In this document: positions 6,454 through 46,394 of the stretch, one piece after another | Layout of the letters: each line of letters begins with the position of its first letter | How positions within the stretch are numbered: position 1 is the first letter of the stretch | DNA from: Octopus vulgaris | Taxonomy: Eukaryota | NCBI GenBank assembly: GCA_951406725.2 | Contig: OX597822.1 | Location: 74,896,001 to 74,960,000 of the forward strand | Direction of reading: 5' to 3' | Length of the DNA stretch: 64,000 nt | Made by a program: the position numbers and the translations under genes | The notes under the pieces: model-generated | Seen by the model: only the letters and a program-made list of their open reading frames with translations | Databases searched by the model: none | What the model was told of the DNA's origin: nothing

Positions 6454-6646
6454 ATGACGACCACCATGTCTCCAACGGTTACCAGAATCCTTCTGCTGCT
6501 CCTATTCACTGGCACTGTCTTATCAATTGACATTGATTGCAGTTCCATGGCACCAGTCTCCACATCAATTATTCCACAGTCAGAAGCATGTCCTTTTAAA
6601 ATTCATGTTTCGTCCAAATTCTACAAACCTAATGTTGCATTGACAG
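6454..6646 (+). CDS. Coding exon 1: signal peptide and Reeler start (MTTTMSPTVTRILLLLLFTGTVLS-IDIDCSSMAP...YKPNVALT)
   Basis: Hydrophobic signal peptide; donor G|GTAAAA. The acceptor ttcccacag at 6399 suggests an upstream non-coding exon. Confidence 0.85.
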
Positions 6647-7650: not shown

Positions 7651-7690
<40 letters not shown>

Positions 7691-10600
7691 CTGAAATAAA
7701 TGTTTAATCACTCAAACATGAATTTAGGACTGCTGTTTGATAAATTTATTAATCCTGCAAACTAGGTTGAGCATGCAGAATCGGTTTGCCTGACTGCACA
7801 AAGAAAGAAACAAACATAACAAGCTTCAAAATTGTCCTTCACTGTTGAGTAGTTAGCGATAAGTAGGGCACCCTGCTATAAAAATATATAAAAGTGAAAA
7901 GGAAAAATTATGTAATCTGTAAAAATGGGTAAAGACCCCTTTAGTCATGAATGACTGGGATTGCACTGAGAAAGTTCCCCTCTGGGGCACAAGTCCAAGC
8001 AAGGTTGTTTATGGAAGACCAGCAGTCACCCATGCACACTACTCTCCCTTCTCTTCATGCAGCTGATGTTATCATAGGGAAAGGCAAAAGCCAGTGCAGC
8101 TATGACACCAGTGACATTGCAACTCATTTCTATAGCTGAGTGAACTGGAGCAATGTGAAATAAATTGTCTTGCTCAAGAACACAATACACAGCCTGGTCT
8201 GAGAATCGAACTCACCACCTCATGATTGTGAGCCTGACGCTATAACCTCTGAGATAACATACAATGAAATGGCTCGTAAAGCATTTAACCCTTTTGATAC
8301 CTACCCGGCTGAAACCATCTCTGGCTCTGTAGTACAAATGTCTTGTTTTCATAAGTTTTGGATTAAAATCTTCCACCAAACCTTAGTCACAATTTATGTT
8401 CCTAACGTTAGCTTAATGATAACTAAGTTATTTTACTAAATTCTTTGTTATATTTAAAATTAATTGAAAGAAACACAGAGCATCTCAACAGAAATATGGT
8501 AACAAAAGGGTTAAAATATATAATAGAGAAACAATTCTGAACCCTTTTGATACAAACCTGGCTGAAACCACTTCTGGCTCTGTGGTACAAATGTTTTGTT
8601 TTCAAAAGTTCTGAATTAAAATCTTCCACCAAACCTTAGTCACAATTTATGTTCCTAACACTAGATGAATGATAACTAAGTTATTTTACTAAATTCTTTG
8701 TTATATTCAAAATTAATTGAAAGAAACACAGAAATCCGTCCAACCCATGCTAGCATGGAAAGTGGACGCTAAACGATGATGATGACAGAGCATTTCAACA
8801 GAAATACAGTAATGAAAGGCTTAATATAGTTGATAGTATATTCATTTCTACTCTAGGCACAAGGCCTGAAATTTTGGGGGAAGTGGCCAGTCGATTAGAT
8901 TGACCCCAGTATGCAACTGGTACTTAATTTATCAACCCCGAAAGGATGAAAGGCAAAGTTGACCTCAGCGGAATTTGAAATCAGAACGTAAAGACAGATG
9001 AAATACCGCTAAGCATTTCACCCAGTGTGCTAATGTTTCTGCCAGCTTGCGGCCTTATAGTTGATAGTATATTATGATTGCAAACTGAAATACAGTGTAT
9101 CTACCAGTAATTAATGTGTATGTACCAGCTGCCAGAAATGTGTTTAATATGTAAAACTGGTATCTCCAATGGTGTTACACTATTAAATTTTATTGTTATT
9201 TAAGCAATGTGTTTGTGGTTGGTTAATGGTTGGTTGTAGCACCGAAGGAGGAGCAAGAACTCCTGAAATGTTTATATATTACCCATTATCTATTTTTCTA
9301 TCTTCGATCGCATTGTTTACGTAAATGTATTCATATACAAAATGTAACTTTCAGCGTTGGCTCTAATTTCTGTAAAGAAATCTGTAGAGATAATTTTAAA
9401 AAGTGGTAAACTTATGTGTATATAAACATTGTATTTTCAGTAACTGTGTCATCTATAGATGGCAGTAAATTTCAAGACTTACAGATTGTAGCCAGGAAAC
9501 TTTCTGGTAATGATAACGGGCCCCAGGGCACATTCTTGGGTGCTGAACGAGAGGTTATGATCCAGAATTGTAAAGAAGTGTCAGGTGTAAGTATTCTCTT
9601 GATGTTTTCACTTTTTAAAATTGTTTTTCTTATTTGTGCTTTAAATAGATTGGACTCCTATGTGTTCACCTAACCTGAATTTGTTGCACGGTGATTGTAT
9701 GTGGCCTGAATGTGTTGTGTAGTGGCTTAGTGGTTAGGGTGCTTGGCTCAAGATCGTAAGGTTGTGAGTTTGATTCCTGGTGGTGCGTTGTGTCCTTGGG
9801 CAAGACACTTTACTTCACAATGCTCCAGTCCACTCAGCTGGCAAAAATGAGTTGTACCTGTATTTCTAGGGGCCAACCTTGTCACACTCTGTGTCCTGCA
9901 GAATATCTTTGAGAACTATGTTAAGTGCACATGTGTCTGTGGAGTGCTCAGCCACTTGCACGTTAACCTCACAAGCAGGCAGTTCTGTTGATTGCATCAA
10001 CTGGAACCCTCGTCATCATAACTGATGGAGTACCACAAGTGGCCACCATATGGTGTGAATATGTTGAGTGGTGTAATCTCATGCGATTCAGGTGTGTTTT
10101 GTATATTCACCATATGACCCAAAAATGTTGTGTGGGGTATAAACTGTGTGTCTTGAGTGTGTTGTGAAGTTTCTGTGTGCTTTGAGCATTTGAGTATATT
10201 GTGCTCACTCGTTGCCTGAGTATATTTAGTACTGTTCACTGTATCCCAGTCATAGAAACCATGGCAGGGTAGAGTGAGCTTAGTGCAGTCTTCAGCCTGG
10301 TCAGCTCCTGTCAAACTGTCCAACCCATGCCAGCATGGAGGGAGGATGTCAAATGATGATCTGTTCACTATGCACTATCTTTGAAGTTCATGTGTTCACT
10401 GTATGCCCTGGATGTGTTGTAGTGTTTACTGAGTGTCTTGAATATTTGAATGTATTGTGTTTACTGTATCCTGTGTGCATTGAATATTTGAATATATTGT
10501 GTTCACTGCATGCATTGTGTAGTGTTCACTATATGCCTTGAGTATATTGTGTTCACTATATGTGTTGTGTAGTATTCACGGTTTAAATATATTGTGTTCA

Positions 10601-13600
10601 CTATGTGCCTTGTGTATTTGAGTATATCATGTTCACTGCATGCATTGTGTAGTGTTCACTGTGCATTGTGTAGTATTCATTGTGTGCCTCGAGTACATTG
10701 TGTTCACTATGTATCTTGAGTATGTTGTGTTCAGTATGTATCCTGAGTGTGTTGTGTATGTTCACTGTGTGCTTTGAGTATTTGAATGCACATAGACATG
10801 CATGCATGTGTGCACTGACATGCAAGTTCTCACATGCACTGTATTGGATAGCATTTTGGGTGTTTAGATCAGCATTTCTTAAACTGTGGGTTGCAACCCC
10901 ATTTAGGATCATGAGGTGAAATGCTGGGGTTGCGAAAATTAAATTCAAACACTTGAATTTCAGTTTTTATGTTATTTCACAAATGTATATTTAATACCTG
11001 GGGGTCATGAAAAATCTTGTGATGTAAAATGGGGTCATGAATAAAAAAAGTTTAAGAAATGACCACAAATGGGATTGCAAAACAAAATGCTGGGGTCGCG
11101 AAAATTCAATTCAAACATTTGAATTTCAGTTCATATGTTATTTCACAAATGCACAATATTTAGCGTGATGCATCATGTTGAAGATGCTTTACATCCAGCA
11201 GTGCCAAATATTACACCAAGGTTTAATTTCGCTTATGCAGCAAAAAACAAGCACAGCTGTCACTTTGTTTTTTGTTTTTGTTTGTTCCTTCTCGAGTCAC
11301 GCCTGGCTCATAAGGGCTGGTTTCCAAGTTTCCTTGGCGTATAGGTTCCCCACCTGGACAGGACGCTGGTTGTCGCAGGTGAGCTGTAAGATGCAGGAGG
11401 AAAGAGTGAGAGAAAGTTGTGGCGAAAGAGTCAGCAGAAGTTCGCCATTACCTTCTGCTGGAGCCACGTGGAGCTTAAGTGTTTTGCTCATAAACACACA
11501 CATTGCCCGGTCTGAGATTCGAACCCGCAATCCCTCGACTGTGAGTCTGCTGCTCTAACCACTAGGCCATGTGCATCCACCATATTTTAATTTTGGCAAA
11601 TGATATAACTACTTTTTTTATAAATATATTGTACAGCAAAAAAATAAATGATTTATGTATTTATTTGTATGTTTTATTTCATATTACCTGGGTTTGCGCA
11701 AAAACCTCATGATGAAAAACGGAGTCATGAATAAAAAGAATTTAAGAAGCGCTGGTTTAGATAATGTTGTTCTTGTGGGAGGAAGAGTATAGGCATGACT
11801 GTGGGCCTGTGCAAATGACAACGCAACTATCATTTCTTTGGGTTTTTTATTCCAGGATGGCTATGTGAAGATCAACAATGAACTATTATCAAATATCACC
11901 TTTTTCTGGAGTGCGGACAAGTATGTTGGCCATATCTATTTTCTGTAAGTATTGCATTCTTTACATTGACCATTTTGGGAAGTTTTATTTTTTTCATGCT
12001 TTGTAAGAATAATAGTTGCAGGCATAGCTGTGTGTTAAGAAGCTTGCGAGCTGGCAGAAACGTTAGCACGCTGGGCGAAATACTTAGCAGTATTTTGTCT
12101 ACTGTTACGTTCTGAGTTCAAATTCTGCCGAGGTCGATTTTGCCTTTCATCCTTTCGGGCTCGATAAATTAAGTACCAGTTATGCACTTCGGTCGATGTA
12201 ATTGACTTAATCCATTTCTCTGTCCTTGTTTGTCCCCTCTGTGTTTAGCCCCTTGTGGGTAGTAAAGAAATAGAAATAGGTATTTCGTCTACCGTTACAT
12301 TCTGAGTTCAAATTCCACCAAGGTTGACTTTGCCTTTCATCCGTTCGGGGTCGATAAATTAAGTACCAATTATGCACTTAGGTCGATGTAATCGATTTAA
12401 TCCATTTGTCTGTCCTTGTCTATCCCCTCTGTGTTTAGCCCCTTGTGGGTAGTAAAGAAATAGCAATAGGTATTTTGTCTACCGTTACGTTCTGAGTTCA
12501 AATTCCAAGGTTGACTTTGCCTTTCATCCTTTTGGGGTCGATAAATTAAGTACCAGTTACGTACTGGAGTCGATGTAATCGACTTAATCCCGTGTTTGTT
12601 CCCTCTATGTTTAGCCCCTTGTGGGCAATGAAGAAATAAGAAGCTTGCTTCCCAATCACATGGTTCTGGGCTCAGTCCCACTGTGTGGCACTTCAGGCAA
12701 GTGTCTTCTACTTATTTGAGTTTTCACCTACCAAATCAACCCATGTGGAATCGGTTGGTCTGGGGCTGAAGTAGAAGACACTTGCATCTGTTGCCATGTA
12801 GTTGAATTGAAACTGAAACATGTTAGCAAAGCGAGCTTCTCAACCACATGACCATGTTGCAAACAAAACAGAAAAAAAAAAATTGCTCACGTTTTTGGAT
12901 TATATTTAGACAAACCATTTTAATGGTAAAACATAACATTTAAGAATCTTTATGAGATATCTTGTGGTTTTTTTTTTTTGCAGCTTTACCATATCAAGAG
13001 ACTACCAAACCTTCTGGATTAGAGAAAGGTCAGCAACAGTTCTTGACCACACTAAGGACCTACCTGTACCAAAAGTACCCCAAGAGGTGAGCAACTTTAT
13101 AAGTTCTTAATTTTGGTTTCATTTCTTTGTTGTCACCATGTTGTGTTGTTATGGTTGCTGTTTAGTTTCCAGATCATCCTTGATCAAAGAGACACATGAT
13201 CAAATGCATCCCAGCCATGACCACCGTGTCTTTTTCATATGAACAGGGAAACCGGGTTGCACATTATCCAACATGTTCTTTTCTAAGATGGCCAGATGGA
13301 ATTTGGGAGAGATTTGGCTGTTATTTCTAACAGGTTGAAGCTTTCTCTTTTTTTAGCTTTTTAATTTCTTTTTTCTTTTTTTTTTTTGCCACTGCTTAAT
13401 TATTTCTGTAACATTTTAATTATACCCACTCGTTAGTGCCTACTTTATGCATTAGTATCTACAGAGAGTGAGAGAAAGAAAGAAAGAGAAGTTGGAGGTT
13501 AATGATTGATTTAATCACATATACACAGTCCTCTCTGTCTTTCTCTCTTTCTCTTTCTCTTGTATAACATATTTATACATTTTCATGATAATTATCAATA

Positions 13601-16600
13601 AGCCACAGGAGTGGCTGTGTAGTAAGTAGCTTGCTTACCAACCACATGGCACCTTGGTCAAGTGTATTCTACTATAGCCTCGTGCCGACCAAAGCCTTGT
13701 GAGTGGATTTGGTAGACGGAAACTGAAAGAAGCCTGTCGTATATATGTATGTGTTTGTATATGTTTGTGTGTCTGTGTTTGTCCTCCAACATCGCTTGAC
13801 AACCGATGCTGATGTGTTTACGGCCCCGTAACTTAGCGGTTTGGCAAAAGAGACTGAAACAAGTAACAAGTAAAAGAGTAAGCCCATAAAGGCATGTAGC
13901 TTAGTGGTTAGGGTATTTGACTGACAAATCATAAGACCATGAGTTTGATTCTTGGCATCTCGTGTTCTTAAGCAAGACACTTTATTTCACATTGCTCCAG
14001 TCCACTCAGCTGGCAGAAATGAGTAGAACCTGCATTTCAAAGCGCCGGTCTTGTCACATTCTGTGTCATACTGAATCTTCCTGGGAACTACATTAAGAGT
14101 ACGCATGTCTGTGGAGTGCTCAGCTGCTTGCACGTTAATATCACGAGCAGGCTCTTCCATTGATCAGATCAACTGGAACTCTGATTGTCATAACTACTGG
14201 TAGTGCCAGTTACTTATCAATAAGTGTTATATACAATATAACCGGGTTATATTGTATTGCCAGTTCAATCCTTATGGCAAGCCAAATTATAAATATAATC
14301 TTATTGCTTCAATTTCAGGTAAATTGAGGCAATCGAGGATTATCTGGGCTAGTGGATTAACAGTCATAAAATGTGGTTCACAACTGGGATCTGGGATCAG
14401 TGAACTCACGATCTGGGATCAGTGAACTCATGAACTGGGATCTGGGATCAGTGATAAGCAAGGCTACATATATCATAGAAAGTGTAAAAGTTGAATCTTT
14501 TGGACCATTTTTTAAGCTTGAATTTATGGGGTTGACTTTGACATAGATAACTACTTTTGAGGGACTGAAATTCAAGCCAGAATCCGAGGTACCATATCTG
14601 CAGCAGAAGCCCAGCTCATCTTTAAACGAATAAAAACAAAAACTATGAATTACAGTAATATTACCAATTCTATGCCTCAAAACACGCATCCTAGTAAATA
14701 ACAAAGCCCATAAGAAAGACCGCATTGCTCTCGTGTGCAGTTACCAGTAAATGTCCATGATCTGGTGTAGAGTTGTTAATCTGAAGTAGGGATTCCCAAA
14801 ATGTGTTCTGCAAAACCCCAGAGTTCCCTGAAAGTTATCAGGGGTTCCATGTTTTTAAAAATAATGTCGAAGGATTCTGTGGCAAAAAAAAGTTTGGGAA
14901 CCAATGATCTAGTGATTAACTAAATGTTTTTTAGGCTTACCAAAGTTATGCCTCTGTATGAATTCCTACAGTGGTGTTTGCTATTGTTCACCAATAGTGT
15001 TGTCTGTAAAACATGTTTCTCACCATGTAAACAACAAGCATATGACACATGTGTTTATTGGATTTGGAAATGAGGAAAATATAAAGGTTGCATAGCAACC
15101 ACTGATCCAATGATTAATTGAATGATTTTTAGGCTTACCAATGTCATGCCTTTGTATGAATTCAGACTGTGGCATTTGCCAGTGTTTGTCAATAGTGCTG
15201 TCTGTGAAACACGTTTCTTACCATGTAAACAACAAGTGTATGTTTATAGTACTTGCAGCATATCCTGTGCATATATTTTCACATTTTAGTAATGGTAATG
15301 CAGCACCCATCAACAGATGTGTAGTGCTCGTTATTAAATGGTGAAGGCGCATGACTTAGTGGTTAGGGGCATTCAGCTCAGGATCATAAGATCGTGAGTT
15401 CAATTCCTGGTGACGCGTTGTGTTCTTGAGCAAGACACTTTATTCTACGTTGCTCCAGTCCACTCAGCTGGCGAAAATGAGTTGTACCTGTATTTCAAAG
15501 GGTCAGCATTATCACACCCTGTGTCACGCTGAACCTCCCCGAGAACTATGTTAAGGGTACACATGTATTTTTGGAGTGCTCAGCCACTTACATGTGAATT
15601 TCATGAGCAAGCTGTTCTGTTGATTGTATCAGCTGGGACCCTCGTCGTCGCAACCGATGGAGTGCTCCTACTATAAGCACTGAGCATTCCTTTATAAGTA
15701 CTCCACCTATAGAGCAGGGTACAGTAAGGTAGCCACACAATTTTGTAACTGTTAATTCTATGTAGATGACAGTATGGTATCTTGACCCACAAATGTTGTC
15801 CTGTTGTTTGTGAAATACTAGGGTTGACTTTTATATGGGTTCTATGGAAAATTCCCAATTATTTGGCCAAAAATAGGAGGTTGACTTTTACATGAGTTTG
15901 ACTATCACTCGAGTATATACGGTATATTAATTTCACCCCAATTTTCCATATTTCAGAACATTGTTCCCTTAACGAAGCAGATCAATACGGCCGACTGTGG
16001 CAAGACTCGTGGTTGCTATCGGGAACCAGCAGGATGCTGGGAGCTGAACTGCAAGTACATCGTAACCTGGAAGAGCATTGACAATGTCGTAGAGGTGGAA
16101 ATGAGTATGGCTACAGGTCGAATTCATAATGTCTGGATGACATTTGCTCTGTCTGACGATACATATGAGGTAAGTGAATATCTGTGAATTGCTCTGGCAA
16201 GGAAGTTTGTCTTACATTCTTAACATTTCTCCTGTTTTAGTTTTTCTTCAAATCTTTATATGATGGGTATGTGCCTTAGTTACTCTGCACAGGTAGCATA
16301 ACTGAAAGACATTATATATACAGGGCGCAGTGAATGGGGCTAATGCAGTTTTGCACCTCTTCTTGAAAAATGCACGTTTTTGAAAACATTTTTTCAGATT
16401 CCTACGTTTTAGATGTTGGAGATTATGAATATGCAAAAAAATGAATTTTTTTACATTTCACCCTCCGAATATGAAATTTTGATTTTGCTTATTTGGAAGA
16501 AATTGTAGTGAATTGATGAACATATGCAAATTGAAATTAAATATAGACTAAAACATCAAAGTGAAAAGAATTTGCATTTTACTTGTGTTTGCCTTAACTA

Positions 16601-17636: not shown

Positions 17637-17680
<44 letters not shown>

Positions 17681-23825: not shown

Positions 23826-23858
<33 letters not shown>

Positions 23859-32800: not shown

Positions 32801-35070
32801 CATCATCATTGTTTAACGCATTCTGTGCTGGCATGGGTTGGACGGTTTGACATGACCAGACAAGTTTCCCTACGAGATTGGAAATGGACCCCGAATGTGT
32901 GGTGGTGACACTCATTTACAACTATCTCATGACATCAAAGCAAGGAAACTGTAACACTGACATATATACACGCATATACATATGTACAACAGTTGCCATT
33001 TATAAAAGCTTTGTTTGACCTGGGACTAAAATAGAAGACATTTGCGCAGGATGCCAAGCAGTTGGTCTGACTGAACCCTCAGAAATTCCAAGCTGGTGTT
33101 TGGCCTGCTGGAAGATCACTGTGAGTGAGGCTCCCCTTAGCTTTTGTTAAAGCATGTCTCTAGAGCCCACTTCAAAGACAGGCTACATCTGCCCCAGTAA
33201 TCAGTGGTAATCAGTGGTGACTTGATCAGTAAATTTTCAGTGATGGTTGATAGTCAATAAGTTGAGCTGCAATCCCAAAGTGTGAATGCAGGACCATATT
33301 TGAACCTGTATTCCTGCTGAAATCCCAAACATGAACTCTATGCCTAAACATTGCAGTCAGCACTCATGAAGGACCTGGTGAACCTGTTGGCTGGAGTCAT
33401 CTTGATCCATGTGGATGAATGCTACTACAGGAACATGTCAGGAAGCCTCGTTCTTACCCCACAACCGAATCCGGGCCTAAGCTACCCTTTTCACTCCGCC
33501 ATCCAAATTCTTTACTGTGCCTTTATAAACAGTTTAATTTTCCTTTATTCTTTTCTTTCCAGTTATTTTTATTTTAACTCACCCATGTTTTCTGTATATC
33601 ACCTGATCACACCCCTGATATTAGAAGTGAACCCCTCTTTTCTCTCTTTTGTCTTTTCAGGTCTACTGGCCATGTATGGTGTCAGTGTTTGTGCTCATGA
33701 TTTTGGCTTTCATCTTTTTCTTTGTGGATGCAGGAGGATATGTTGAGGTGAGTCTTCCTTCTTCTCTTTATCTGTTGTCATTGGCAACATCATCATTGTA
33801 TCATCATCACTGCCATCATCATCATCACCACCACCACCATTGTCACCACCACCATCATCATCATTCTATAGTTGGAATTTACCAAAAAACAAAAACAAAC
33901 AAAACAAAAGACGACGAATGTGTAAACAAACAAACAGATGTATTAGTTTAACGCTCGGGGAGTGAGAAAGTCTTTTACATTTCGAACCTACGCTCTTCAG
34001 CAGAAAGGAACACTGAAATAAACAGGGAGAGAATATAAAATCATCAGTCTATACTACTACTACTATTAGAAACAGCTATCATTAATAAAAGTGTGATAAA
34101 TTGGTAGAATCGTTAGAGGCATTTGGCAAATTGCTTTACTTTGTTGTTCTTAATGATCTGGATTCAAATCCTGCCAGATTTGATTTTGCCTTTCATCTTT
34201 TCAAAGTCGATAAGATAAAGTGCAATGGGGTACCAATATATGAACAGTTCTCTAAACAAACAAATTGTATAATGAATAGTTTTTCCTGAATAAAATTAAA
34301 CTCCCAAAATGAGCTGAAATTTGATCCATGAACCACGAGCAGACTGTGAACCTATAAGTGACTGGGAGTCCATTTACTTAGAGAAATGAAATTTGGACAA
34401 TGAACCACTTGTAAACTATTCAAGCATACAAGTTCTGGGAGAATGTGTATGAATGGTACAGTAAATGAATAAACTGAATGGTGAATGGTTCTTCTGAAAA
34501 AAATTATATTTAGCTGACCTGTTGAACTTTGAACAACAAACCTTAAATATTACTATTTCTAAATTTCACAACAAGAGATATTCAGCAACAGTACTTTGTA
34601 GTAAAGATTATCTGTCAACATAACATGGCAGTCCTGGCTTAGGACTAATGTTGCTGTAATTTAGCCCCAGGAGTCAACGTCTCCAGCTGACTATATGACA
34701 CAATCTGTGTCCTTATATTTTCAAACAAGGGAATCTAGCACCCCAACTCTAGCACCCGTTCATAGAGACCCTGTTGTACTAGTCTAGTTCTGGCTCAATG
34801 TAACTGACTACCCAACCTCTTCAGAATTACTGGCATTGTATCTAATTTAGAAAATTATTATTAAGGCGGCAAGCTGGCAGAATCGTTAGCATGCTGGGTG
34901 AAATGGTTTGCAGTATTTTGTCCGTCTTTATGTTCAAATTCTGCTGGGGTTGACTTTGCCTTTCATCCTTTCGGGGTTGATGAAATAAGTACCAGTTGAG
35001 TACTGGAGTTGATGTAATCGTCTATCCCCCCTCCCCCAAATTTCAGGCCTTGTGCCTAAAGTAGAAATGA

Positions 35071-35125
<55 letters not shown>

Positions 35126-37876
35126 GGTGGCGAGCTGGCAGAATCATTAGCATGCCGGGAAAAACACTTAGTGGTATTTTGGCCACCCTTACATTCTGAG
35201 TTCAAATTCTGCCGAGGTCGACTTTGCCTTTCATTCTTTTGGGGTCAATAAAATAAGTCCCAGTGAAACACTGGGGTCAATGCATTTGACTTACCCCCAT
35301 CTCCGAAATCATCATCATCATTATTATTATTATTATTATTATTTAAATGCCTTCTAATATCTTTCTCTCTCTTTGTTATATTTCCAGGCTCCCTATCTAC
35401 CGCTCAGAGCTCACCCAATCATGCTGATTGTCGTCTTCGTGTGTGTCTTAATAATCGTAAGTAAAACATTTTTTTGGCCAATTCTTACACCAGACTCCTC
35501 ACCTTGTAGTGATTTTATGTCAAGCAGGAAACTCAGACATTTTGATCATTGTCCCTTTTAGTGTGATGTAAATTATATCTACCTTATAACCACGAAGGGT
35601 CATACCCTTGAGATTGTGGTTTTGATTCCAGGACTGGGCAATGCATTGCATTCTTGAGTAAATCACTTAACTTCATGTTGATACAGTTCACTCAGTTGTA
35701 AACAAATCAGCCTACAATGGACTGATATACTGTTCAAGAGATTTGTTGTGATCTAGAAATCAGACAACCAGCTCTATAAATCCTACAACTTCAGATAGTG
35801 ATGTCCATGGCTTGGTGGTTAGAGTGTTGGACTCATGATTGTAAAATTGTGGTTTTGATTCCCTGACCAGGCAATGCGTTGTATTCTTGAGCAAATCACT
35901 TTATTTCACATCCACCCTGCTAGTAAAAAAGAGTAATCCTAAGACTGACCAGTGTCCCATCCATGGGGGAATATATATGCCTGATAAACTGGCCTAATGC
36001 TCTTTTTAGGAGTAATGTGGACTAACCAAGAATTGATGACGTTGATGATAACCATATTCAGCTTTACTATGATAGGACTCGCTCTGCCTTTCCTCTTCCT
36101 CCACCCATTGCTGGTGCCTCCACTGTGTGATTGCCACTAATGATGAGAAGACGCATGGCCCAGTGGCTAGAATGCCGGGCTCACAATCATGAGGTAGTGA
36201 GTTCGATTCCCAGACTGGACTGTGTGTTGTGTTCTTGAGCAAGACACTTTATTTCACTTTGCTTCTGTTCACTCAACTGTAGAAATGAGTTTTGACATCA
36301 CTGGTGCCAAGCTGGATTGGCCTTTGCCTTTTCCTTGGACAACATCGGTGGCATGGAGAGGAGAGGCTGGTATGCATGGGCAACAGCTGGTCTTGCACAA
36401 ACAACCTTGCCTGGACTTATGCCTCAGAGGGGGAACTTTCTGGGTGCAATCACATGGTCATTCATGATAGGACTGGTGTCCTGTTCAGAGGAAATGTTGT
36501 GGTCTCAATCACTTGTAATCCTTAGAAACCAAGTAACTGGTCCTCTGAGCCCTTGGACTTGAGACAGTAATGTTCAACAGTTAATGACAATGATGGTAAC
36601 CCTGTTCAGCTTTATCACGACAAAGGGATTTGGAGACTACTGCTTGAGTCTAACTGGATCATGTCCTGTCACTAAACATTGCACTATAATAATTGGCTAA
36701 GAAAATTAGTGGAGTATGGCTCAGTCTACCTGGTTGTAAATAGACACCTCAGCTCATGCAACCAGCGAAACCTTCTTCCACATACCAACTGAATGTTTTC
36801 TAACTTTGCAGTGAACCGAGATCAGATCAAAGAATACAATATATGTTCATCCATTATCTTCATTTTAGGCATTGTGCACCTAAGACCACATTACTCATTG
36901 TCCTTTTTTTTTTTAAAGATTGTAGGGTGTAATTCGAATGGGATTTGGTTGCTATTTCTAGCAGGTTGGGCAACCAAAGACTGTTAGATTAATCAGTTTA
37001 GCTTTCAGTGAATTCATTATCAATCAATATTTAATTTACCAGTAGATGGTTTTCTGCTACTCGCAAAATAATGTTACAGATTTGATTCACAATTTGTATA
37101 ATTTTACCGTTATTTTACATCTAATTTCCTTTTGCATCCATTATTTATTTAATAACACATAAATTTCAAATAATAGCACGCACTGAAAGACAGTGTTAGA
37201 ATTAATGAAGATATCAGATATTATGTTGAGTTAACCATGTAAAAGCTCTCAGTTTATTGTATATATACATATTAGAAGATTTTTTTTTCTTTTGGAAAAG
37301 AAATGATTTAAAAAAATATTCCTGGAGTGGCTGTGTGGCAAGTAGCTTGCTTACCAACCACATGGTTCTGGGTTCAGTCCCACTGCATGGCAACTTGGGC
37401 AAGTGTCTTCTACTATGGCCTCGGGCTGACCAAAGTCTTGTGATTGAATTTCATCATCATCACCATTTAACGTTTGCTTTCCATGCTAGCATAGGTTGGA
37501 CTATTTGACTGAGGACTGGCATACCAGATGGCTGCACCAGTCTCCAATCTGATCAGGCAGAGTTTCTACAGCTGGATGTCTTTCCTAACGCCAACTGCTC
37601 CGAGAGTGTAGTGAGTGCTTTTATGTGCCACTGGCACAAAGGCCAGTCAGGTGGTACTGGCAGTGGCCACGCTCAAATGGTGTTTTTTATGTACCAAGCT
37701 AGATTGGCCTTTGCCTTTCCCTTGGACAATGACCTCGCCCGAATGTTTTTTCACATGCCACCGACACAAGTGCCAGTAAGGCAACACTGGTAATGATCAC
37801 ACTCAAATGGTGCTTTTTATGTGCCACTGGCATGGAAGCCAGTCAGCTGCTACGGAAAGTGAAAGAAGCCCGTCAT

Positions 37877-37920
<44 letters not shown>

Positions 37921-40900
37921 GTGTTTGTGTGTCTGTGTTTGTCCCCCCAACATTGCTTTACAACCAATGCTTGTGTGTTTACGTCCCTGTAACCTAGCAG
38001 TTTGGCAAATGAGATCGATAAAATAAGTACTAGGCTTACAAAAATTAAGTCCTGGGGTCGATTTGCTCGACTAAAAGCGGTGCTCCAGCATGGCCGCAAT
38101 CAAATGACTGAAACTAGTAAAAGAATAAAAGAATAATACTGTAAATAACCGTACAAACTACAATAGCACAAGCAGTAATTTCCTTGAAGGATTTGGCTAT
38201 CAGAAATATATATTTTTTGATATGTCTGTATGAAGTAGCATCATGAGGTGTAAGAGAGCTAGAAAGGACAATGACGGAATGTTACCTCGCTGTGTTAAAT
38301 AATGCCATCCCATAATAAATTAAAACTATTTTTCTGTAGTTGAAATCTCCATTAATAAAAGAATCTTCAAAACCACATTTTAATAAAAATATATGAAAAT
38401 CATGATTTTTAAGAATTTTTAATAATCGCTTTAATAGTCACTTTCTTTTAGTAAAAGTTGTATACTCTAGACTAATTAATAAACAGCTTTCTTTATTATA
38501 ACACAGATATAAATATAAGCTTAATACAAGTAATACACTGCTATGTTGGGGGTCTTATGATTGGTACTTCACCGTTTCACATTTGTGAGCTCAAATCTTT
38601 CTAGAATTGATATTGTTAATCTTTTTCTAGTAAAGTAAATGAAATGCACTTCTTAAAAAATACAACAGAAAAGAAACCAAAAAAATTATTTACTTATACA
38701 AGTTTGTCAAGTGGAGTCAGTGACTTGACTTTTATGAGGTCAGTGACATCTATCAGTGAGTGATTGTTTGTTGCAGGCACATGCTGTCAGTAATTACTCA
38801 GGGTAGGCAGTTGGTGACCTTTATGTAGCAAAACATACAAAACAATAAGCAAAACACAGGTGTGTGACTGAGCTGAAGGCAGATTTACTTCTGCCTTTAT
38901 AGCACATAGAGAAAACGTTGTTGTAGGAGTGTATGCAGCATGTGTACTACATCAGTCCTATTCGTAGCTTTAATACTGAGATTGAAAGGCAGGGGCGAAT
39001 TATTTCTACCTAATCTACAAATAATAAAATATTTTGTATTTTATGCATAGTAATTAGAGTAACCAACACAATTTTATTGAATTAGATGCATATTTTGCCA
39101 TGACAGGAAAATGTTGCTATTGATATATTTTATTCAAGGTAGGCACTGCCTATCTTGCCTGTCTAGGGGGCATGTCCCTGGTTTGTTGAGTTTATAGGGA
39201 AAGTGAAATAGAAGTGGCTACACTCCTAAGCAATGCAAGACATTCCCTAGTGAGAATTGAAACTGTATCGCAAGCTCCAGTTTACTGGAGATTCAACTTC
39301 TCATCTCATTTCCTCTTCTGCTACAGCAGGAGTGATTTAACAAACCATGTTTGTTAAATCACTCTTGAAGCATGAAATATCTTACTGACACCTAATGCCA
39401 GCCGAGTGAAGATTATAGAATAACATAAAGACAAGATTTGAACCTATAATCCATCAAGTTAGATAGCCAAGCTACTATCATCTCTGCTCAGCTAGTTTTA
39501 CATTGTACAGCTTACGTTAAGCAAATACCTAAACCCTCAATCTTCTTTTTCGTATGGAATTATCAGTCCTTCTGCTTATTTAGTTATTTTTCAGTTACCA
39601 ACACACAGAACCACTAATCACTTCTCTCTTGTGTTTTCTTTCATTTATAATTGTTTATTGAAGCCCACATCATTTTATTTGCAAGTGTTTCTCCTAAGTC
39701 AGCATCAGCAACACCGTTTATTTTGCAAGTGTTTATCTAAGCCACACTATTTATTTGCAGTTGTTTATATACAACCACACTCCATTGATTTTTCTTCTTC
39801 TTTTCTTCTTCTGCTATTTATCTAAACTGCACCGTTTGCTCTGCGATTGCTGATCTAAGCCATTACTATTTGTTTGCAAGTGTTTATCTTATACAGCTCT
39901 ACAAAAAAAAAACAACAACAAAAAAACAAAAACAAACAAGCATAGAAAATAAATAGCTAAATAAATAAATAAACAAACAAACAAACAACCATTTCATCCA
40001 GTCATGCAGATAAAACCATGAAAGAATCTGTTGTAACCCTGACTCGCTTTTCTTTGTTTTTCTCTTACAGCCGATAATAATGTTGTTGATTCGATGCACA
40101 GATGGCTGCCTTCAGTTTATCTTCAACATCATCTGTTTCATTCTCTGCCTGGTGACTCTCATTTTGGCCAGTGAGTATTATAGCATTGCCGACAGCACTT
40201 CTTTGTTTTCCTTTAATCTCAGTCTCTTCATCTCTCTCTCTCTCTCTCACATAATTACGTCATAAACATTTTTAATTATTATTATAATTATTATTATCAT
40301 AACTCACATTTACTGCTGTATGAAACAGATCCCACCTCCATAACTCTGATTTACATGTAAACGTGTCTGTATAAATACATGTATAAAGTGTATAAATGTA
40401 TGTATAAACATACAGGTGTCGGCTGTGTGGTAAAGAAAATTGCTTCCCGACCATTTGGTCTTAAGTTCAGGTCCATTGCATGGCACCTTGGGCAAATATT
40501 TTTTACCATAGCTCTGGGCCAACCAAAACCTTGTAAGTAGATTTGGATGGAAACTGCAGATAACTCATTGTGTGTGTGTGTGTACCTGTGTCTATACCAT
40601 TGCTCTGCAACCATTTTTCACATGTGGTACACTTGTATTCTTTTCAAAATTCGGCTGTACACCTGAACTAAAATTATAATTGAAAGTATAGGGAAAAAAA
40701 ATTATATTTAGGTTACACTGCGGCACACCTAGTGTCATCTTGTGGCACACCAGCATGCCTCTGCATACCGGTTGCAAGGCATTGGTCTAGATAACAAAAT
40801 GTTTATAAATAATCATCTTCATCATCCTAATCATAATACAGGCAAGGTTGTTCATTTCCAGTCTTTTGTGGAAAACATATCTGTTCATTATTTACATTTG

Positions 40901-41724: not shown

Positions 41725-41775
<51 letters not shown>

Positions 41776-44700
41776 ATGAATGTGTGTTAGATAGAATGAG
41801 ATAACAAAGCCAAGGCTGTGAGGAGTTTTCAGGACATTTATAATGAAGTAGCCTTACTACTATTTCAGGGATATTATGAACATCCTTTCATCAGAGGCGG
41901 TGTGAGAAAATATTTGAGTTCGAACTATTGTGGAAGAGGAAATATAGAGGGAAATAAGACAATGAAAGTATAAATAAGATATATAAAGTCCATAACGCTT
42001 AATGTTTACCCACTACTCTTTGGGTCTTCTAGATACCAATACCTCTCCTATATATATGTATATGGTCTATAAGACTTTCATTGGTGTTTACTCTTTGTTT
42101 CCTTGCAGTTCCAACCTTACTGATCAGTCTAGACTATGGCAGATACTACATACCCTGGTGGATTACATGGTTCCTTGTTGCCATCATGATAATCCAGCTT
42201 ATTATTGATATTTTACTTAAGATTCACGATTTCTGCTATTACGAGAAGAACGAAGGTAAGTCTTTCATATTTGCATTCGGTTTGCAGTTTTTTTCTTTGA
42301 AATGTGAAATTGTATGTTGAAGTAGATGTTATTGCATTTTGGGAGGGTCATACTGCCAGTCAGTGAAACACATGCACTGGTTGTAGTTCACTTTAGTTTA
42401 TTATCAGTTAGATAGATAGTTTTATTGTATGATTATTTTTATCATCAGTTAATTATAATTAGTTTGGAACACTGAGCCAAGAGTAAGGAGCAAGAAGTGT
42501 CTGTTAACTGAGGAAATGTTGGGATGCGGGGTGGTGGGGGTGCAAGTGGGATCATCATTGATAAGGTCAAAGGCTCTGGTGAAAGATCTATGGTGAACCA
42601 ATTATTTGATTAATTCATCAATTAATTGACTAATTATCTAAGTAATTGATAATAAAACTCAAGTGAAATATGACTACAGAAGGTAACTCATTTTTGTGTA
42701 TCTAATATTTAATCGGAGTTTGGATGGGGTGGGGTTGCAAAGGTGGAACAGTGCATGTAACCTTTCTTCATGGCCTCTGAGACAAGCGAGAGGAAGGGAA
42801 GCAGGGAGGAAATTATCCTCAGGCTAAGGGCTACCTTGAATACTTTATAACAGCATAGCTTAAGGTACTCAAAGATCAGGTGGTTGTGTTGAACAAGGCG
42901 GCAGGTTAAGTGTACCCCCTATTTCTGTCTCTCTCTTCCCGTGCATTCTCTCTGACTTTTCCCCCCTCCTTCCTTTGTCTTTCAAATACTCCAGTTCTTT
43001 TTTTCCATCTCTCTTCTTAACACTCACATTTCTCTCTATCTTTCAATATATTTTTCTCCTTCATTTGATCTCTCTGTCCCTTCTTTCTATCTTTCTTCTC
43101 TCCTTATATTATATATCTCTCTCTATTCCTGTAACATCTTATATCCCTCTCACACTCTCTCTTGTTCCTTTCTTTTTTTTAGTTATTCTATTGTTGCCTC
43201 TCATTCTCTTGTTCTCCTTCTGTCTTTTCCTCTCATATATTCTCATCTTACTCTCATTTTGTCTTTCTCATGCCCCCTCCTACCACCTCTTTTCTCACTT
43301 TTTGTTTGTATCTTTCTCTCTCTCCCTCGCTGTCTGTCTCTTTCTGTCTTCGTTTTTCTCTTTCACTGACATTTCCCTTCCTCCGTTGTCTCCAATCAAC
43401 CTCTCACCTCACTCCATCACACATCCTATTAGAGAAACTTCATTGCTGCTGTATTCCTCAAGCAGTCGCATACTGAAAGCTTCAATACACCTCTTGTTTC
43501 TTTGTAGTCTCGCCTCAAGATGTCACTTCTAAACACCTTTTTTTTTATACCTTTTGTCTGCTGAAGGGCTACATAGGGAGCTGCACAACTAACACTAGAG
43601 TTTTCTCCCCCTGCTTCCATGTTCTCAGTGCAACTCTCTTGTGTTTGCTTAAATTTTTCTAGCGAATGAAATTGCCTGAAAATTCAGATACAATTATTTT
43701 GACCCAAACAACAACTGAAAAAAATTTCATTGAAATCCATTTGATAGAGACTGCATGCGTGTTAAGAACATGTTTCATTCTTTGATACAGATCATACACA
43801 AATCACAATTTGTATCAAATATTTGTTTTATATTCTTATAAATTGTCAGTTTAAACAGATGATCAGCATGAATGGGTTAAGTGTCTTAAACAAAACCATG
43901 TTATTGACACAAATGCTATCTCTATTGCAGAACGCCGAGAAAAATATGAATACTCAAAGAGGGAGAATCCAAAATTGTACATCCCAGAACCGCACCCCGT
44001 TGTAAGTATACACCTCTTATTATATAGCCTCTTGTTGATGTTGTTTGACAATCAGGGCCCTTATACTGTATAGTTCATATTAGGATCAGTTATTACAATG
44101 GTAATAAGATTGCTGGCTGTGTTCCGTTGACACTGCCTGCATTCAATCCTGGGCATCTCTTACCAGGGCAGAGTGAGAAATGAAGAAGTGATGGAAAGAA
44201 CTTGAATTGGAAGATTTCTGGACATAGTGACGAAGCAGTGGATTATGGTTTACTGGCCATGTGCTTTGATTACTGTAGGAGAAACATGCTACCATTGTGA
44301 TGTGGTGGATGCTGGAAAGAGGGAAAAGACTGAGTGGAAGACCAAGGAAAATGTGGAACAGTACATTCCAGGTCGACATATCATCATCATTATTGTTTAG
44401 CGTCCGCTTTCCATGCTAGCATGGGTTGGACGGTTCAACTGGGGTCTGGGAAGCCAGAAGGCTGCACCAGGCCCAGTCTGATCAGGCAATGTTTCTATGG
44501 CTGGATGCCCTTCCTAACGCCAACCACTCCGTGAGTGTAGTGGGTGCTTTTTACGCGCCACCGGCATGGAGGCCAATCGGGGTGGCACTGACAACGGCCA
44601 CATTCGGATGGTTCTCTTACGTGCCACCGGCACTGGTATCACAGCTACAATTTCCATTGATGTTGACATACTAGCAATGGAATTGGCTCAAGTGGAGCTG

Positions 44701-46394
44701 AGAGGAAAGCGAACAGTTGGGATGTTTGAAGGAAGTTCCTTACCTGTTGCGCTGATGGTATTGGTGTAAAATAAGTGAAATAGATACTTAGATCTCTATC
44801 AGGTTTCAGCAATGAATAGTCAATTGATTGGTCAACTGGACTATTTACTCAATGATTTGAGGTGTAAGTGGACGAGTATTCCACAGATATGTAAGTAAGC
44901 CTGTCTGTCTGTATGGTTAAGAAGCTTTGCAACCATGTAGTTTTGGGTTCTGTTTCACTGTGTGGCACCTTGGGCAAGTGTCTCCTCTCGACTGAGGCTG
45001 ACCAATGCCTTGTGAGTTGATTTGGTTGAGACAAGCTGAAGAAACCCACTGAATGTGTGTGTGTGTGTTACTGTATCCTTACCTTAATTTGCTATGATGT
45101 TTGTAAGTAAGCATCACCATGCAAGCGTTTTCCTTCATTTCCAATCTGCTAGAGCATGTTTTTTTGCAGAATATTAAAAATGAACGATTCATTTACAATT
45201 ATCACACGATGGCAAGACAAGCAGACACAAACACACACATCCATATACGATGGACTTCTTCCAATCTCAAGGCTTTGGTTGACCTAGGGCTATAGTAGAA
45301 AATATTTGCTCATGGTCCCGTGCAGTGAGACTGAACTTTAGACCATATGGCTCAGAAGTGAACTTAACCACCCAACCAGTCCTTCATCAGGGATAATATA
45401 TATTTTAATATACTGGATTTAAATTAACTTGTTAATATTTATTTTCTACATAAATTAATCTTATTAGAAAATTACTATTTTTAAATCTCACGAGAGATAT
45501 TTAGCTACAGTACTTTGTAATAAAGATTGTTTGCCAACATAACATGGCAGTCCTGGTTTAGGACGAATGTTGCTGTAATTTAGATCGTGTCATTTAGCCA
45601 ACTGGAGACAATGTCTCCGGAGGCTAAATTACAGCAACATTCGTCCTAAACCAGGACTGCTATGTTATGTTGGCAAACAATCTTTACTATAAATTAATCT
45701 TATGCCTAATTAAGAAGAATCCAGTTTGAGATTGTGGAACTTGGTTACGAATGCTTACATTCTCTGTTCAAATCTCTTTTTTGTCTATTTGGGCTGGTAA
45801 ATTAAAGTAATTAAAGTTCCAGCCCTGTAACAGAGGTTGATTCAATCTAGAGTACACTTCCCTTCAAAATCTGATGGTCATGTGCCTGGTAGAAGCTTGT
45901 ATTATTTGTATTTATTTTTGTTTCTTTGAAACTAACTTGGGACTGTCGGTTACCACTACGAGCATTCCAGTTGATCTGATCAACAGAACAGCCTGCTCAT
46001 GAAATTAATGTACAAGTGGCATGCATACCCTTAACGTTCTCAAGAAGATTCAGCACCATACAGAATGTGACAAGGCCGGCCCTTTTGAAATACAGGTACT
46101 GCTCATTTTTGCCAGCTGAGTGGACTGGAGCGATGTGAAATAAAGTGTCACCAGGAATTGAACTCACGACCGTAAAGTTGTAAGCTGGATACCCTAACCG
46201 CTAAGCCATGTACTGTCACTTCTTTGAAACTTTCCTACAATCCAATGTACCAATATTTGTTTGTACTCACTCTGTTTTTCCGTTCTGTTTATTATTTGCA
46301 GGGTCGACGCTTCAAGAAGTGTTGTCTGTTTGTTCACGTGTTCTTCACGGTGGTGCTGTCAGTTATTGTTATAATAGTGATCGCTGCCGCCTAA
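6454..46394 (+). CDS. FRRS1: FRRS1/SDR2-like ferric-chelate reductase family protein (signal peptide-Reeler-DOMON-cytochrome b561-TM), 15 coding exons, 602 aa
   Basis: Exons 6454-6646, 9441-9586, 11856-11944, 12984-13086, 15957-16169, 20419-20523, 25870-26023, 28030-28152, 30084-30199, 33661-33747, 35388-35456, 40071-40170, 42109-42255, 43931-44001, 46302-46394. All introns are GT-AG with compatible phases, giving 1809 nt with no internal stop. Family motifs: CSSMAP...QTFW (Reeler), CGKTRGC-P-GC...ALSDD--EGDD (DOMON), AKTHVILMILAW, YWF, AHP, FN (b561), GRRFKK plus final TM. The symbol denotes family, not proven orthology. Confidence 0.92.
6811..6920. repeat. Tandem repeat, 24-bp unit AGTTGTCTGACTGACTGCYAACTT x about 4.5
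   Basis: Seen directly. Confidence 0.9.
7089..7433. mobile_element. Palindromic Tc1/mariner-type MITE (about 155-bp arms)
   Basis: CAGTTG...CAACTG-TA ends; near-perfect inverted arms; sits in the microsatellite of a family A SINE. Confidence 0.85.
8285..8824. mobile_element. Tandem dimer of a roughly 225-bp piggyBac-like MITE
   Basis: TTAA-CCCTTTTGATAC...GTAACAAAAGGG-TTAA; second copy carries a short SINE-tail insertion. Confidence 0.75.
9441..9586 (+). CDS. Coding exon 2: Reeler (VTVSSIDGSKFQDLQIVARK...GTF...NCKEVSG)
   Basis: ttttcag| and |gtaagt; phase 1 to 0. Confidence 0.88.
10370..10790. repeat. Degenerate tandem repeat (GTGTTCACTRTRTG...TTGAGTATATT units)
   Basis: Recurrent gtgttcact motifs. 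Confidence 0.7.
10870..11754. mobile_element. hAT (Charlie-like) MITE with 8-bp TSD GTTTAGAT and a nested SINE at about 11290-11580
   Basis: TIRs CAGCATTTCTTAAA and TTTAAGAAGCGCTG; GTTTAGAT at 10862-10869 and 11755-11762. Confidence 0.85.
11856..11944 (+). CDS. Coding exon 3: Reeler (DGYVKINNELLSNITFFWSADKYVGHIYF)
   Basis: ttattccag| and |gtaagt; phase 0 to 2; W-x-A...G-x-I-x-F pattern. Confidence 0.88.
12046..12640 (+). mobile_element. tRNA-derived SINE family B with triplicated body; other copies near 8845(-), 31952(-), 34864, 35125, 52795, 56656, 57638, 62375(-)
   Basis: B-box GAGTTCAAATTCC; central GCCTTTCATCCTTTCGGGGTCGATAAA-AGTACCAG; many copies. Confidence 0.85.
12984..13086 (+). CDS. 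Coding exon 4: Reeler end and linker (FTISRDYQTFWIRERS...PKVPQE)
   Basis: Poly-T gcag| and |gtgagc; TFW motif. Confidence 0.9.
15346..15667 (+). mobile_element. tRNA-derived SINE family C; other copies near 9722, 13891, 24194, 36151
   Basis: TTAGTGGTTAG A-box, GAGTTCAATTCC B-box, TTGAGCAAGACACTTTA core. Confidence 0.8.
15957..16169 (+). CDS. Coding exon 5: DOMON N-terminal part (ADCGKTRGCYREPAGCWELNC...WMTFALSDDTYE)
   Basis: tttcag| and |gtaagt; 71 codons; FRRS1-type Cys pattern. Confidence 0.93.
16328..17094. mobile_element. MITE-like element with about 115-bp inverted arms and a nested family A SINE (16603-16970)
   Basis: 16336-16440 is the reverse complement of about 16985-17090. Confidence 0.75.
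17264..17537 (+). mobile_element. tRNA-headed SINE with Penelope-like tail (copy 1)
   Basis: A-box TGGCGTAGTGG, B-box GAGTTCGATTC, (TAA)n spacer, tail with CTGATGA...GAAAC; homologous to 40919-41225. Confidence 0.75.
17411..17456 (+). ncRNA. Degenerate minimal hammerhead ribozyme motif
   Basis: GACAC-CTGATGA-AA-GCTG...CAGC-C-GAAACATT-GTGTT; the stem III palindrome ACGT is mutated to ACAT. Confidence 0.45.
20419..20523 (+). CDS. Coding exon 6: DOMON (GDDYAFDCIEDFKHG...ELDE)
   Basis: ttattcag| and |gtgagt; GDD-x4-C. Confidence 0.92.
21519..22000. mobile_element. Second tandem dimer of the piggyBac-like MITE
   Basis: Same family and nearly the same linker as 8285-8824. Confidence 0.75.
23600..24130. 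repeat. Low-complexity (ACC/ACT)n then TC-rich tract
   Basis: Seen directly. Confidence 0.9.
25220..25490. mobile_element. Inverted pair of Penelope-like tail sequences with decayed hammerhead-like cores
   Basis: CTGAAGAAGGCTG...CAGCTGAAA near 25390 and an inverted counterpart near 25315-25345; shares AAGATGAGGAC and CATAATTCCTCATCT-like motifs with the tail of the 17264/40919 family. Confidence 0.55.
25870..26023 (+). CDS. Coding exon 7: DOMON (PKKGIVFETGSHYNNRLRCLFRIQK...WHVLLGGGKAWD)
   Basis: Long pyrimidine tract, catcag| and |gtaagt; C-x-F-R motif. Confidence 0.92.
28030..28152 (+). CDS. Coding exon 8: DOMON His region to first b561 His (KKTEHGLG...YPIAKTH)
   Basis: ttccag| and |gtaagt; phase 1 to 1; 123 nt. 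Confidence 0.9.
30084..30199 (+). CDS. Coding exon 9: b561 TM (VILMILAWIVCAPIG...YYKRMWP...YWFV)
   Basis: ttttgcag| and |gtaagt; LM-x-x-AW and WF motifs. Confidence 0.94.
31078..31420 (-). mobile_element. Retroposon family D with (GAT)n tail; other copies near 20740, 24440, 29391, 37452, 44381
   Basis: Shared CATCATCGTTTAACGTCC...GGATGCCCTTCCTAACGCCAACC...GCTTTTTACGTGCCACC. Confidence 0.75.
33661..33747 (+). CDS. Coding exon 10: b561 TM (VYWPCMVSVFVLMILAFIFFFVDAGGYVE)
   Basis: ttttcag| and |gtgagt; 29 codons. Confidence 0.9.
35388..35456 (+). CDS. Coding exon 11: b561 TM (APYLPLRAHPIMLIVVFVCVLII)
   Basis: tttccag| and |gtaagt; AHP motif. Confidence 0.9.
40071..40170 (+). CDS. Coding exon 12: b561 loop and TM (PIIMLLIRCTDGCLQFIFNIICFILCLVTLILA)
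   Basis: tctcttacag| and |gtgagt; phase 0 to 1. Confidence 0.88.
40877..41237 (+). mobile_element. tRNA-headed SINE with Penelope-like tail (copy 2), with 12-bp TSD and inverted tail fragment at the 5' end
   Basis: ATATCTGTTCAT at 40877-40888 and 41226-41237; 40889-40919 is the reverse complement of 41148-41178. Confidence 0.8.
41090..41135 (+). ncRNA. Minimal type I hammerhead ribozyme motif (Penelope-type)
   Basis: Stem I GATAC/GTGTT, core CTGATGA(A), stem II GGCTG/CAGCT, GAA-ACGT-T palindromic mini stem III. Confidence 0.6.
41553..41830. repeat. Fold-back inverted repeat with mirrored microsatellites
   Basis: GAAACTCTTCACAGCCTTGGCTTTGTTATCTCATTCTATCTAACACAC and its reverse complement; inner arm CATAATTAAGGGA/TCCCTTAATTATG. 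Confidence 0.9.
42109..42255 (+). CDS. Coding exon 13: TM (PTLLISLDYGRYYIPWW...KIHDFCYYEKNE)
   Basis: ccttgcag| and |gtaagt. Confidence 0.9.
43931..44001 (+). CDS. Coding exon 14: hydrophilic loop (ERREKYEYSKRENPKLYIPEPHPV)
   Basis: tattgcag| and |gtaagt; phase 1 to 0 bridges exons 13 and 15. Confidence 0.85.
45521..45686. repeat. Fold-back inverted duplication of a repeat also present singly at about 34560-34770
   Basis: About 62-bp near-perfect arms TAAAGATTGTTTGCCAACATAAC...GTAATTTAG. Confidence 0.9.
46302..46394 (+). CDS. Coding exon 15: final TM and stop (GRRFKKCCLFVHVFFTVVLSVIVIIVIAAA*)
   Basis: tatttgcag|; G-x-x-FKK plus TM as in FRRS1 C-termini; TAA at 46392-46394. Confidence 0.9.
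   Translation, partial: GRRFKKCCLFVHVFFTVVLSVIVIIVIAAA

Follow-up and report, generated by a model that had tools for sequence, protein, structure and literature searches.

We analysed a window of 64,000 nucleotides from Octopus vulgaris (NCBI GenBank assembly GCA_951406725.2, contig OX597822.1, positions 74,896,001 to 74,960,000 of the forward strand), which carries at 6454-46394 an FRRS1-like gene encoding Reeler, DOMON and cytochrome b561 domains. The product, named 'putative ferric-chelate reductase 1' by NCBI, has a glutamate (E248) at the position of the heme-binding DOMON methionine, a tyrosine (Y416) at the second b561 histidine (His2, or H2) and a cysteine (C488) at the fourth (His4, or H4), while the DOMON histidine (H340), the first b561 histidine (H375; His1, H1) and the third (H452; His3, H3) are retained. 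Judging from the biochemistry of the family, we consider it very probable that the octopus protein does not carry out ascorbate-driven transmembrane reduction.

Joining the open exons bounded by AG and GT between these positions yields 15 exons and 14 introns, all of them GT..AG (Table 1). The resulting 602 amino acids contain no internal stop, are 100% identical to the annotated O. vulgaris protein CAI9728061.1 (P0161; P numbers are those of the proteins in our collection) and differ by a single residue, E122K, from O. sinensis XP_029641557.1. A preliminary description of this DNA had read the same 602-residue frame over 15 canonical exons and had proposed confirming it by RNA. In contigs of four runs from four studies, which cover exons 8 to 10, the joint 28152>30084 (exons 8-9) is present in two of the four runs and the joint 30199>33661 (exons 9-10) in all four, each across a GT..AG intron, so that the junctions encoding H375-V376 (HV) and V415-Y416 (VYW) are transcribed as modelled. 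The RNA contigs cover these two joints only: read support extends to two of the 14 junctions, and those at E248 and C488 are among the other 12, which are based on annotated proteins from three Octopus species and from Argonauta and, for the cuttlefish cluster, on Logan contigs of transcript size. Exon 5 is complete in 17 of the 24 runs listed, 14 of which we guess to be RNA, none being on record as such. It is missing from four of the listed runs, an absence that does not count as evidence.

Table 1. Exons of the FRRS1-like gene and other reading frames in the window (TM, transmembrane helix; aa, amino acids)
Feature	Position	Strand	Content
Exon 1	6454-6646	+	Start codon ATG; hydrophobic N-terminal stretch, likely a signal; Reeler domain begins; aa 1-64
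Exon 2	9441-9586	+	Reeler domain
Exon 3	11856-11944	+	Reeler domain; the sole N-x-T sequon, N126
Exon 4	12984-13086	+	End of Reeler domain and linker
Exon 5	15957-16169	+	Cys-rich segment, start of DOMON; final codon GAG (16167-16169) encodes E248, the heme Met position
Exon 6	20419-20523	+	DOMON
Exon 7	25870-26023	+	DOMON
Exon 8	28030-28152	+	DOMON His340 (28044-28046) and b561 His1, H375 (28149-28151), both retained
Exon 9	30084-30199	+	TM1, first cytoplasmic loop; M395 at the heme-propionate Arg position (H1+20)
Exon 10	33661-33747	+	TM2; Y416 (33664-33666) at His2, W417 at the next Arg
Exon 11	35388-35456	+	TM3; His3, H452 (35412-35414), retained; L456 at the H3+4 Gly, I466 at the H3+14 Asn/Gln
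Exon 12	40071-40170	+	Second cytoplasmic loop, TM4; C488 (40134-40136) at His4, Q481 at the H4-7 Arg, C492 at the H4+4 Gly
Exon 13	42109-42255	+	TM5; the cytoplasmic loop specific to the subfamily starts here, with H-x-x-C at 539-542
Exon 14	43931-44001	+	Cytoplasmic helix/loop, charged; no differences between Octopus and Argonauta
Exon 15	46302-46394	+	TM6 and stop
Broken reading frames	54491-55722	+	No Pfam match
Short frame	4432-4758	-	No relevant Pfam match
Short frame	26594-27007	+	No relevant Pfam match
Short frame	61258-61518	+	No relevant Pfam match
Short frame	63246-63512	-	No relevant Pfam match

Profiles built from 130 canonical homologs return the annotated exon as the top match for exons 5, 6, 8, 9, 10 and 11, and the introns flanking exons 10 and 12 contain no AG..GT exon of matching size with a canonical His motif. 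The possibility, raised in the preliminary description, that transcripts use other exons supplying the His and Met residues therefore found no candidate in the profile search and flanking-intron scan, which are a weak test for exon 12, as the real exon 12 itself falls outside the top five of its profile. A look-alike of exon 10/14 in intron 14 (~44200-44390) is attributed to chance, since 15 of 300 random pieces of the window score equally high. We also rejected a 626-residue model in which exon 14 begins at an upstream in-frame acceptor at 43859, adding 24 residues to the cytoplasmic loop: no ortholog protein has 43859-43930, and the orthologs favour the start at 43931 that had been chosen before, though the 43859 acceptor could serve a minor isoform. 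A second O. vulgaris model, CAI9728060.1 (P0162; 6399-6646), has another N-terminus, uses partly another frame of exon 1 and lacks the hydrophobic leader; this N-terminus is probably a mis-model.

The domain structure is that of the FRRS1 family. Pfam recognises the Reeler domain (PF02014, residues 29-155, E 2.3e-17, 64 bits against a cut-off of 21), and the top Foldseek matches for this part are F-spondin reeler domains. The DOMON domain (PF03351, residues 208-327, E 9.9e-7) scores 29.5 bits, slightly below the cut-off of 32.7, and is assigned with the help of its fold, which matches the DBH DOMON and the CDH/PDH cytochrome domains. The Pfam b561 profile matches the cuttlefish-cluster protein and none of the octopod proteins, and a sequence search of the PDB with the octopus protein returned nothing significant; the b561 helical core and its nesting within FRRS1 are recognised by fold match (Z ~12) and by a clade with 100/100 support. 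A first AlphaFold model, covering the whole protein and built on 11 sequences, gave a poor membrane part (predicted template modelling score, pTM, 0.41). The model of residues 184-602, from 92 sequences, has a pTM of 0.91 and a predicted local distance difference test score of 96, with six long membrane helices and a cytoplasmic helix at ~544-560. It aligns with the DBH DOMON 4ZEL (Z 12.2, root-mean-square deviation 3.3, 145 residues aligned), the plant (Arabidopsis) cytochrome b561 4O6Y (Z 12.1, 3.2, 155) and Dcytb 5ZLG (Z 12.0, 3.0, 161), the b561 match being found with VIA-align and missed by Foldseek, and STEAP/NOX bundles are also among the fold matches (Z 9-11; STEAP1 Z 9.3). The octopus protein is a member of the FRRS1 family by descent, and its DOMON and b561 folds are predicted to be retained.

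To place the substitutions, we gathered 160 proteins (11, together with the best 150 of 930 representatives) and aligned 158 of them, dropping two without a b561 region. All six ligands are present in 130 of the 158; in 11 the alignment is gapped in at least one of the six columns, and 17 carry substitutions. Among the 147 fully aligned homologs the losses number 8 for Met, 6 for the DOMON His, 1 for H1, 5 for H2, 3 for H3 and 12 for H4, a few of which may be alignment or gene-model errors. Against this background, E248, Y416 and C488 stand out as substitutions, and H340, H375 and H452 as retained ligands, each at the position given by the preliminary description; the Met/His axial pair of a heme-binding DOMON is replaced by E248/H340. 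In this family H2 and H4 ligate the cytoplasmic heme and H1 and H3 the non-cytoplasmic one (PMC10691727, PMC10784544), so the two lost histidines belong to one heme. The second shell of that heme has changed with it. At 31 positions one residue is fixed in at least 85% of the 130 six-ligand homologs; the octopus protein has lost nine of these, and six of the nine lie at the cytoplasmic heme/ascorbate site: R395M (heme propionate), H416Y, R473I, R481Q (ascorbate), H488C and G492C (heme packing). The remaining three are M248E, G456L and I434F. Outside this set, the Asn/Gln at H3+14 has become I466 and the small residue at H3+18 a methionine (A470M), and where canonical homologs have their cytoplasmic heme/ascorbate shell the octopus protein has M395, I466, I473 (at the H3+21 Arg), Q481 and C492. 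Going by the biochemistry of the family, electrons would not pass from ascorbate to DOMON because the inner heme would be lost; in the model of the plant protein HYP1 the Fe-Fe spacing is ~23 Å (PMC10784544).

The altered inner site might instead mark a transmembrane reductase with another entry, in which the outer heme would be fed by flavin, quinol or a docked cytosolic reductase, in the manner of STEAP proteins, or in which an inner heme would sit on Tyr416/Cys488. STEAP1, which has one heme, can accept electrons from FADH2 or cytochrome b5 reductase (PMC10659578), STEAP/NOX bundles resemble the octopus model, the aromatic residues W412, F413, Y416 and W417 line the old site, and a donor could dock on the conserved cytoplasmic loop described below. 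However, the residues at His2/His4 vary by lineage (Y/C, H/F, H/Y, Y/L), which fits loss and not a new ligand pair; larger hydrophobic residues occupy the positions of the propionate Arg and of the small residues involved in packing, and we identified no flavin-binding feature in the octopus protein. We regard such an alternative entry as very unlikely.

The six conserved cysteines, S243, G330, M379 and W383 are retained together with the three ligand histidines, and in the DOMON motif S243-x-D245-x-x-E248-G-x-D251 the S, D, G and D around E248 are all in place. One could imagine redox chemistry or heme handling confined to the outer face, with an outer b561 heme and a His/Glu-ligated DOMON heme acting on extracellular or luminal substrates without cytoplasmic input. 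This would agree with the concentration of conservation in the outer half, with the occurrence of Glu at the Met position in octopods and in all eight aligned cuttlefish-cluster sequences, and with the otherwise intact S-x-D-x-x-[M]-G-x-D pocket, which has been proposed as a metal site (PMC10691727). Yet there is no evident donor, other lineages have Pro or Leu at the Met position, and the strongest subfamily-specific conservation is cytoplasmic; we think this explanation quite unlikely.

The history of the losses was read from a tree of 30 rows, with the six ligand columns removed, the LG+G4 model used for topology tests and groups named after the tree had been seen; a large tree left out six partial proteins, and P0037, whose His4 region looks aberrant, was kept out of the change count. 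In the 30-row tree the octopus protein falls within a 13-row clade (support 100/100) with proteins from Solemya, Pomacea, Littorina, Babylonia, Sinanodonta and others. The gastropod orthologs and Solemya have all six ligands. His4 has become Tyr in Sinanodonta, P0011 and the partial P0019, and is the only ligand missing in the first two; P0013 combines His4 to Tyr with a change of the DOMON His to Pro. In the cuttlefish cluster, which contains a named Acanthosepion pharaonis protein and of whose 24 members eight were aligned, Met is Glu and His4 is Phe while His2 is retained, and in octopods Met is Glu, His4 is Cys and His2 is Tyr. By parsimony with outgroup rooting, we infer that His4 and Met were lost before His2. 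The tree implies no fewer than three losses of His4, and the approximately unbiased (AU) test rejects a grouping of all His4-lacking proteins in one clade (p-AU 0.0003); whether the bivalve-type and coleoid losses are one or separate turns on a node with support 57/19. P0015 lacks Met, H2 and H4 and retains the DOMON His, H1 and H3, and its placement as sister to octopods is rejected (p-AU 8e-5); by this test it evidently reached the same pattern independently. The altered chain is no peculiarity of octopus; it is the end of a stepwise and repeated trend within a molluscan subfamily. No further ortholog cluster came from a third search for homologs, Nautilus and squid being unsampled or unnamed.

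Further FRRS1-like proteins in the collection show ligand losses (P0063, P0096, P0129, P0132 from Gordionus and P0155 from Brachionus); among them are a supported trio that has lost both DOMON ligands, Met and His, and a protein from a rotifer without His2 and His4 in which His1 and His3 remain. Four others (P0016, P0022, P0028 and P0108) are FRRS1-like proteins of 1459-1804 residues; they match in 6-8 stretches, and several DOMON repeats probably accompany a single b561 domain.

The octopus protein is 95% identical to its O. bimaculoides counterpart, 79% to that of Argonauta and 53-55% to the cuttlefish cluster. The split between octopods and cuttlefish dates back roughly 270-300 million years. 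Three Octopus species, Argonauta and the cuttlefish cluster all have an uninterrupted frame, and this, with substitutions common to several species, agrees with the earlier opinion that this is no pseudogene. Two other readings could account for the long coleoid stem (0.66 changes per site) and the small share of junctions with read support: relaxed selection on a redundant copy that is decaying into a pseudogene, or an error in the gene model, the true exons encoding the ligands. Such explanations are largely refuted and highly improbable, given the intact frames, the short terminal octopod branches (0.07 and 0.11), four loops that are 100% identical between Octopus and Argonauta, the spliced RNA seen in all four runs and the failure to find an alternative His-bearing exon 10 or 12.

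The cytoplasmic loop between TM5 and TM6 (residues 538-577) is the most distinctive part of the subfamily. Its mean identity is 67% among nine subfamily proteins and 14% among other canonical homologs, whereas the b561 core shows 54% and 42%, respectively; the Argonauta loop does not differ from that of Octopus, and the cuttlefish loop is 78% identical to it.

The same genome holds paralogs in which the chain is complete. One, at C23:15371535-15397000 (+), includes exons for the Reeler, DOMON and b561 domains, with the six ligands complete; the other, at C24:47750651-47777200 (+), has all six ligands, no Reeler exon being found in the stretch fetched. As read from the printed exons, both also have the second-shell Arg, Asn and Gly, and intron positions over the DOMON and b561 exons are the same in these paralogs and in the octopus gene. 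The canonical four-His paralog that the preliminary description suggested looking for is thus represented by two genes, a count to be taken as a lower bound. There are also two single-domain cytochrome b561 genes with visible His ligands (C6:123975249-123975647 and C9:47411234-47413240). Taken together, six-ligand paralogs and single-domain genes make it likely that ferric reduction is covered without the gene studied here. The C24 paralog has a long CAT-rich tandem array after its TM1 exon, and the region C8:86067751-86472973 contains seven DOMON-exon matches in 0.4 Mb, possibly, at a guess, a MOXD1/DBH-like tandem expansion.

That the protein is unlikely to be a conventional ferric reductase had been proposed at the outset, and this view is strengthened by the loss of one heme's histidine pair, the changed second shell and the existence of intact paralogs. 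What it does instead can be approached through the pattern of conservation, from which we hold it an evenly balanced proposition that it is a non-catalytic adaptor in the membrane whose pocket for heme or a metal faces outward. The chain from ascorbate through the inner heme and the outer heme to the DOMON heme would be broken at the inner heme, while H375 and H452 would still hold the outer heme or a metal. Beside this outer pocket, H340 and E248 together with S243, D245 and D251 would form an altered, acidic DOMON site, and the conserved cytoplasmic helix/loop 538-577 may be an interaction surface that couples the pocket to a partner. The appearance of this loop in the subfamily may have let the redox role lapse repeatedly. 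A fuller scenario, which we offer tentatively and regard as rather doubtful, is that a mollusc FRRS1 subfamily gained a partner-binding cytoplasmic helix and then repeatedly, step by step, lost the inner half of the wire that carries its electrons, and that in coleoids the product is a heme- or metal-sensing receptor or adaptor with a His/Glu DOMON site, a b561 pseudo-enzyme.

Several observations weigh against the adaptor reading. Tyr and Cys are able to ligate heme in other proteins. On the cytoplasmic face K398, W412, F413, M420 and N485 are retained, and R474 lies one position from a lost Arg. The loop is conserved in six-ligand orthologs also and need not explain the ligand loss. The alignment behind the AlphaFold model consists mostly of canonical homologs, so the confidence of the model is no test of the changed pocket, and a Z near 12 for a helical bundle is not decisive by itself. 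Retention of the three histidines is modest evidence within coleoids, where 106 of 219 ortholog-invariant sites are kept (48%; ~0.11 for three sites). Finally, the outer pocket is itself altered: the Gly at H3+4, present in 130 of 130 canonical homologs and in contact with the outer heme in Dcytb (PMC10691727), is L456 in octopods and Leu or Cys in coleoids, and H1+1 is Val or Ser. The preliminary description had considered a mono-heme protein, which we do not adopt, since with G456L and Val at H1+1 the outer heme may be lost too and the His/Glu DOMON site could hold heme or metal. The change at H3+4, the Val that octopods have at H1+1 and an octopod b561 domain below Pfam detection would also fit a cofactor-free scaffold or receptor, in which the remaining histidines are structural relics and no heme is bound. 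Against this, H375, H452 and M379 are retained in all seven scored His4-lacking proteins near the clade, which belong to at least three lineages, and W383 in six of the seven, and the H3+4 Gly persists in bivalve-type and other His4-lacking proteins. We consider the cofactor-free alternative unlikely and continue with the adaptor that keeps an outward-facing pocket.

The window also contains the fragmentary frames at the foot of Table 1. The broken frames at 54491-55722 resemble a Transib/Chapaev-type DNA transposase, and the four short frames resemble Tc1/mariner and non-LTR (long terminal repeat) retrotransposon fragments.

Vertebrate FRRS1L is not known to have a b561 domain; it resembles the octopus protein as a DOMON-containing membrane protein, and the likeness is one of analogy, FRRS1L not having been identified among the homolog matches. 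FRRS1L has been described as a DOMON domain with a transmembrane segment (PMC12188663) and has a non-enzymatic role in AMPA-receptor biogenesis (PMC6398485). Nothing that we found supports the earlier idea of an FRRS1L-like role at AMPA receptors or as a channel subunit. The accessible literature, which leaves out most subscription journals and supplements, returned no description of this gene or subfamily, of b561 pseudo-enzymes or of inner-His mutants. Drosophila CG6479 is mentioned as a b561-domain protein without the conserved histidines, excluded from the study in question (PMC10691727), and is a precedent for His-less b561 proteins, set beside the octopus protein by description only. A snail 'putative ferric-chelate reductase 1' is reported as mantle-specific (PMC5995198).

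The closest known systems are FRRS1/SDR2 and insect CG8399, the animal CYBDOM proteins, which share with the octopus protein the order Reeler-DOMON-cytochrome b561 and six C-terminal membrane helices. Unlike them, the octopus protein has other residues at the DOMON Met, at His2 and His4 and over most of the shell around the cytoplasmic heme/ascorbate site, and it has the cytoplasmic loop of its subfamily; the replaced residues are described as conserved in all CG8399/CYBDOM proteins examined (PMC10691727). The molluscan orthologs from Solemya, Pomacea, Littorina, Babylonia and Sinanodonta belong to the same clade and have the same loop, but coleoids also lack the DOMON Met and octopods His2 as well. 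Arabidopsis HYP1, a plant CYBDOM, likewise combines DOMON and b561, but has all ligands and is an active reductase, modelled as a three-heme conduit in which the outer His pair is needed for current (PMC10784544). STEAP1 holds a single outer heme in a related helical bundle; it is of a different family and binds flavin adenine dinucleotide (FAD) at its inner site, whereas we see no evidence of FAD in the octopus protein. STEAP1 alone is without reductase activity and can be reduced by partners (PMC10659578). CYBDOM proteins are modelled as three-heme wires, and the octopus protein is a conserved, expressed version from which one half-site has been removed. Together with its relatives it forms a natural series, with His4 alone missing (Sinanodonta), His4 and Met (cuttlefish cluster) or all three ligands (octopods) and the intact paralogs as controls, which makes it possible to test which hemes a CYBDOM protein requires and whether a function outside redox chemistry exists in the family. 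'FRRS1' in expression studies of cephalopods and bivalves should not be read as iron reduction.

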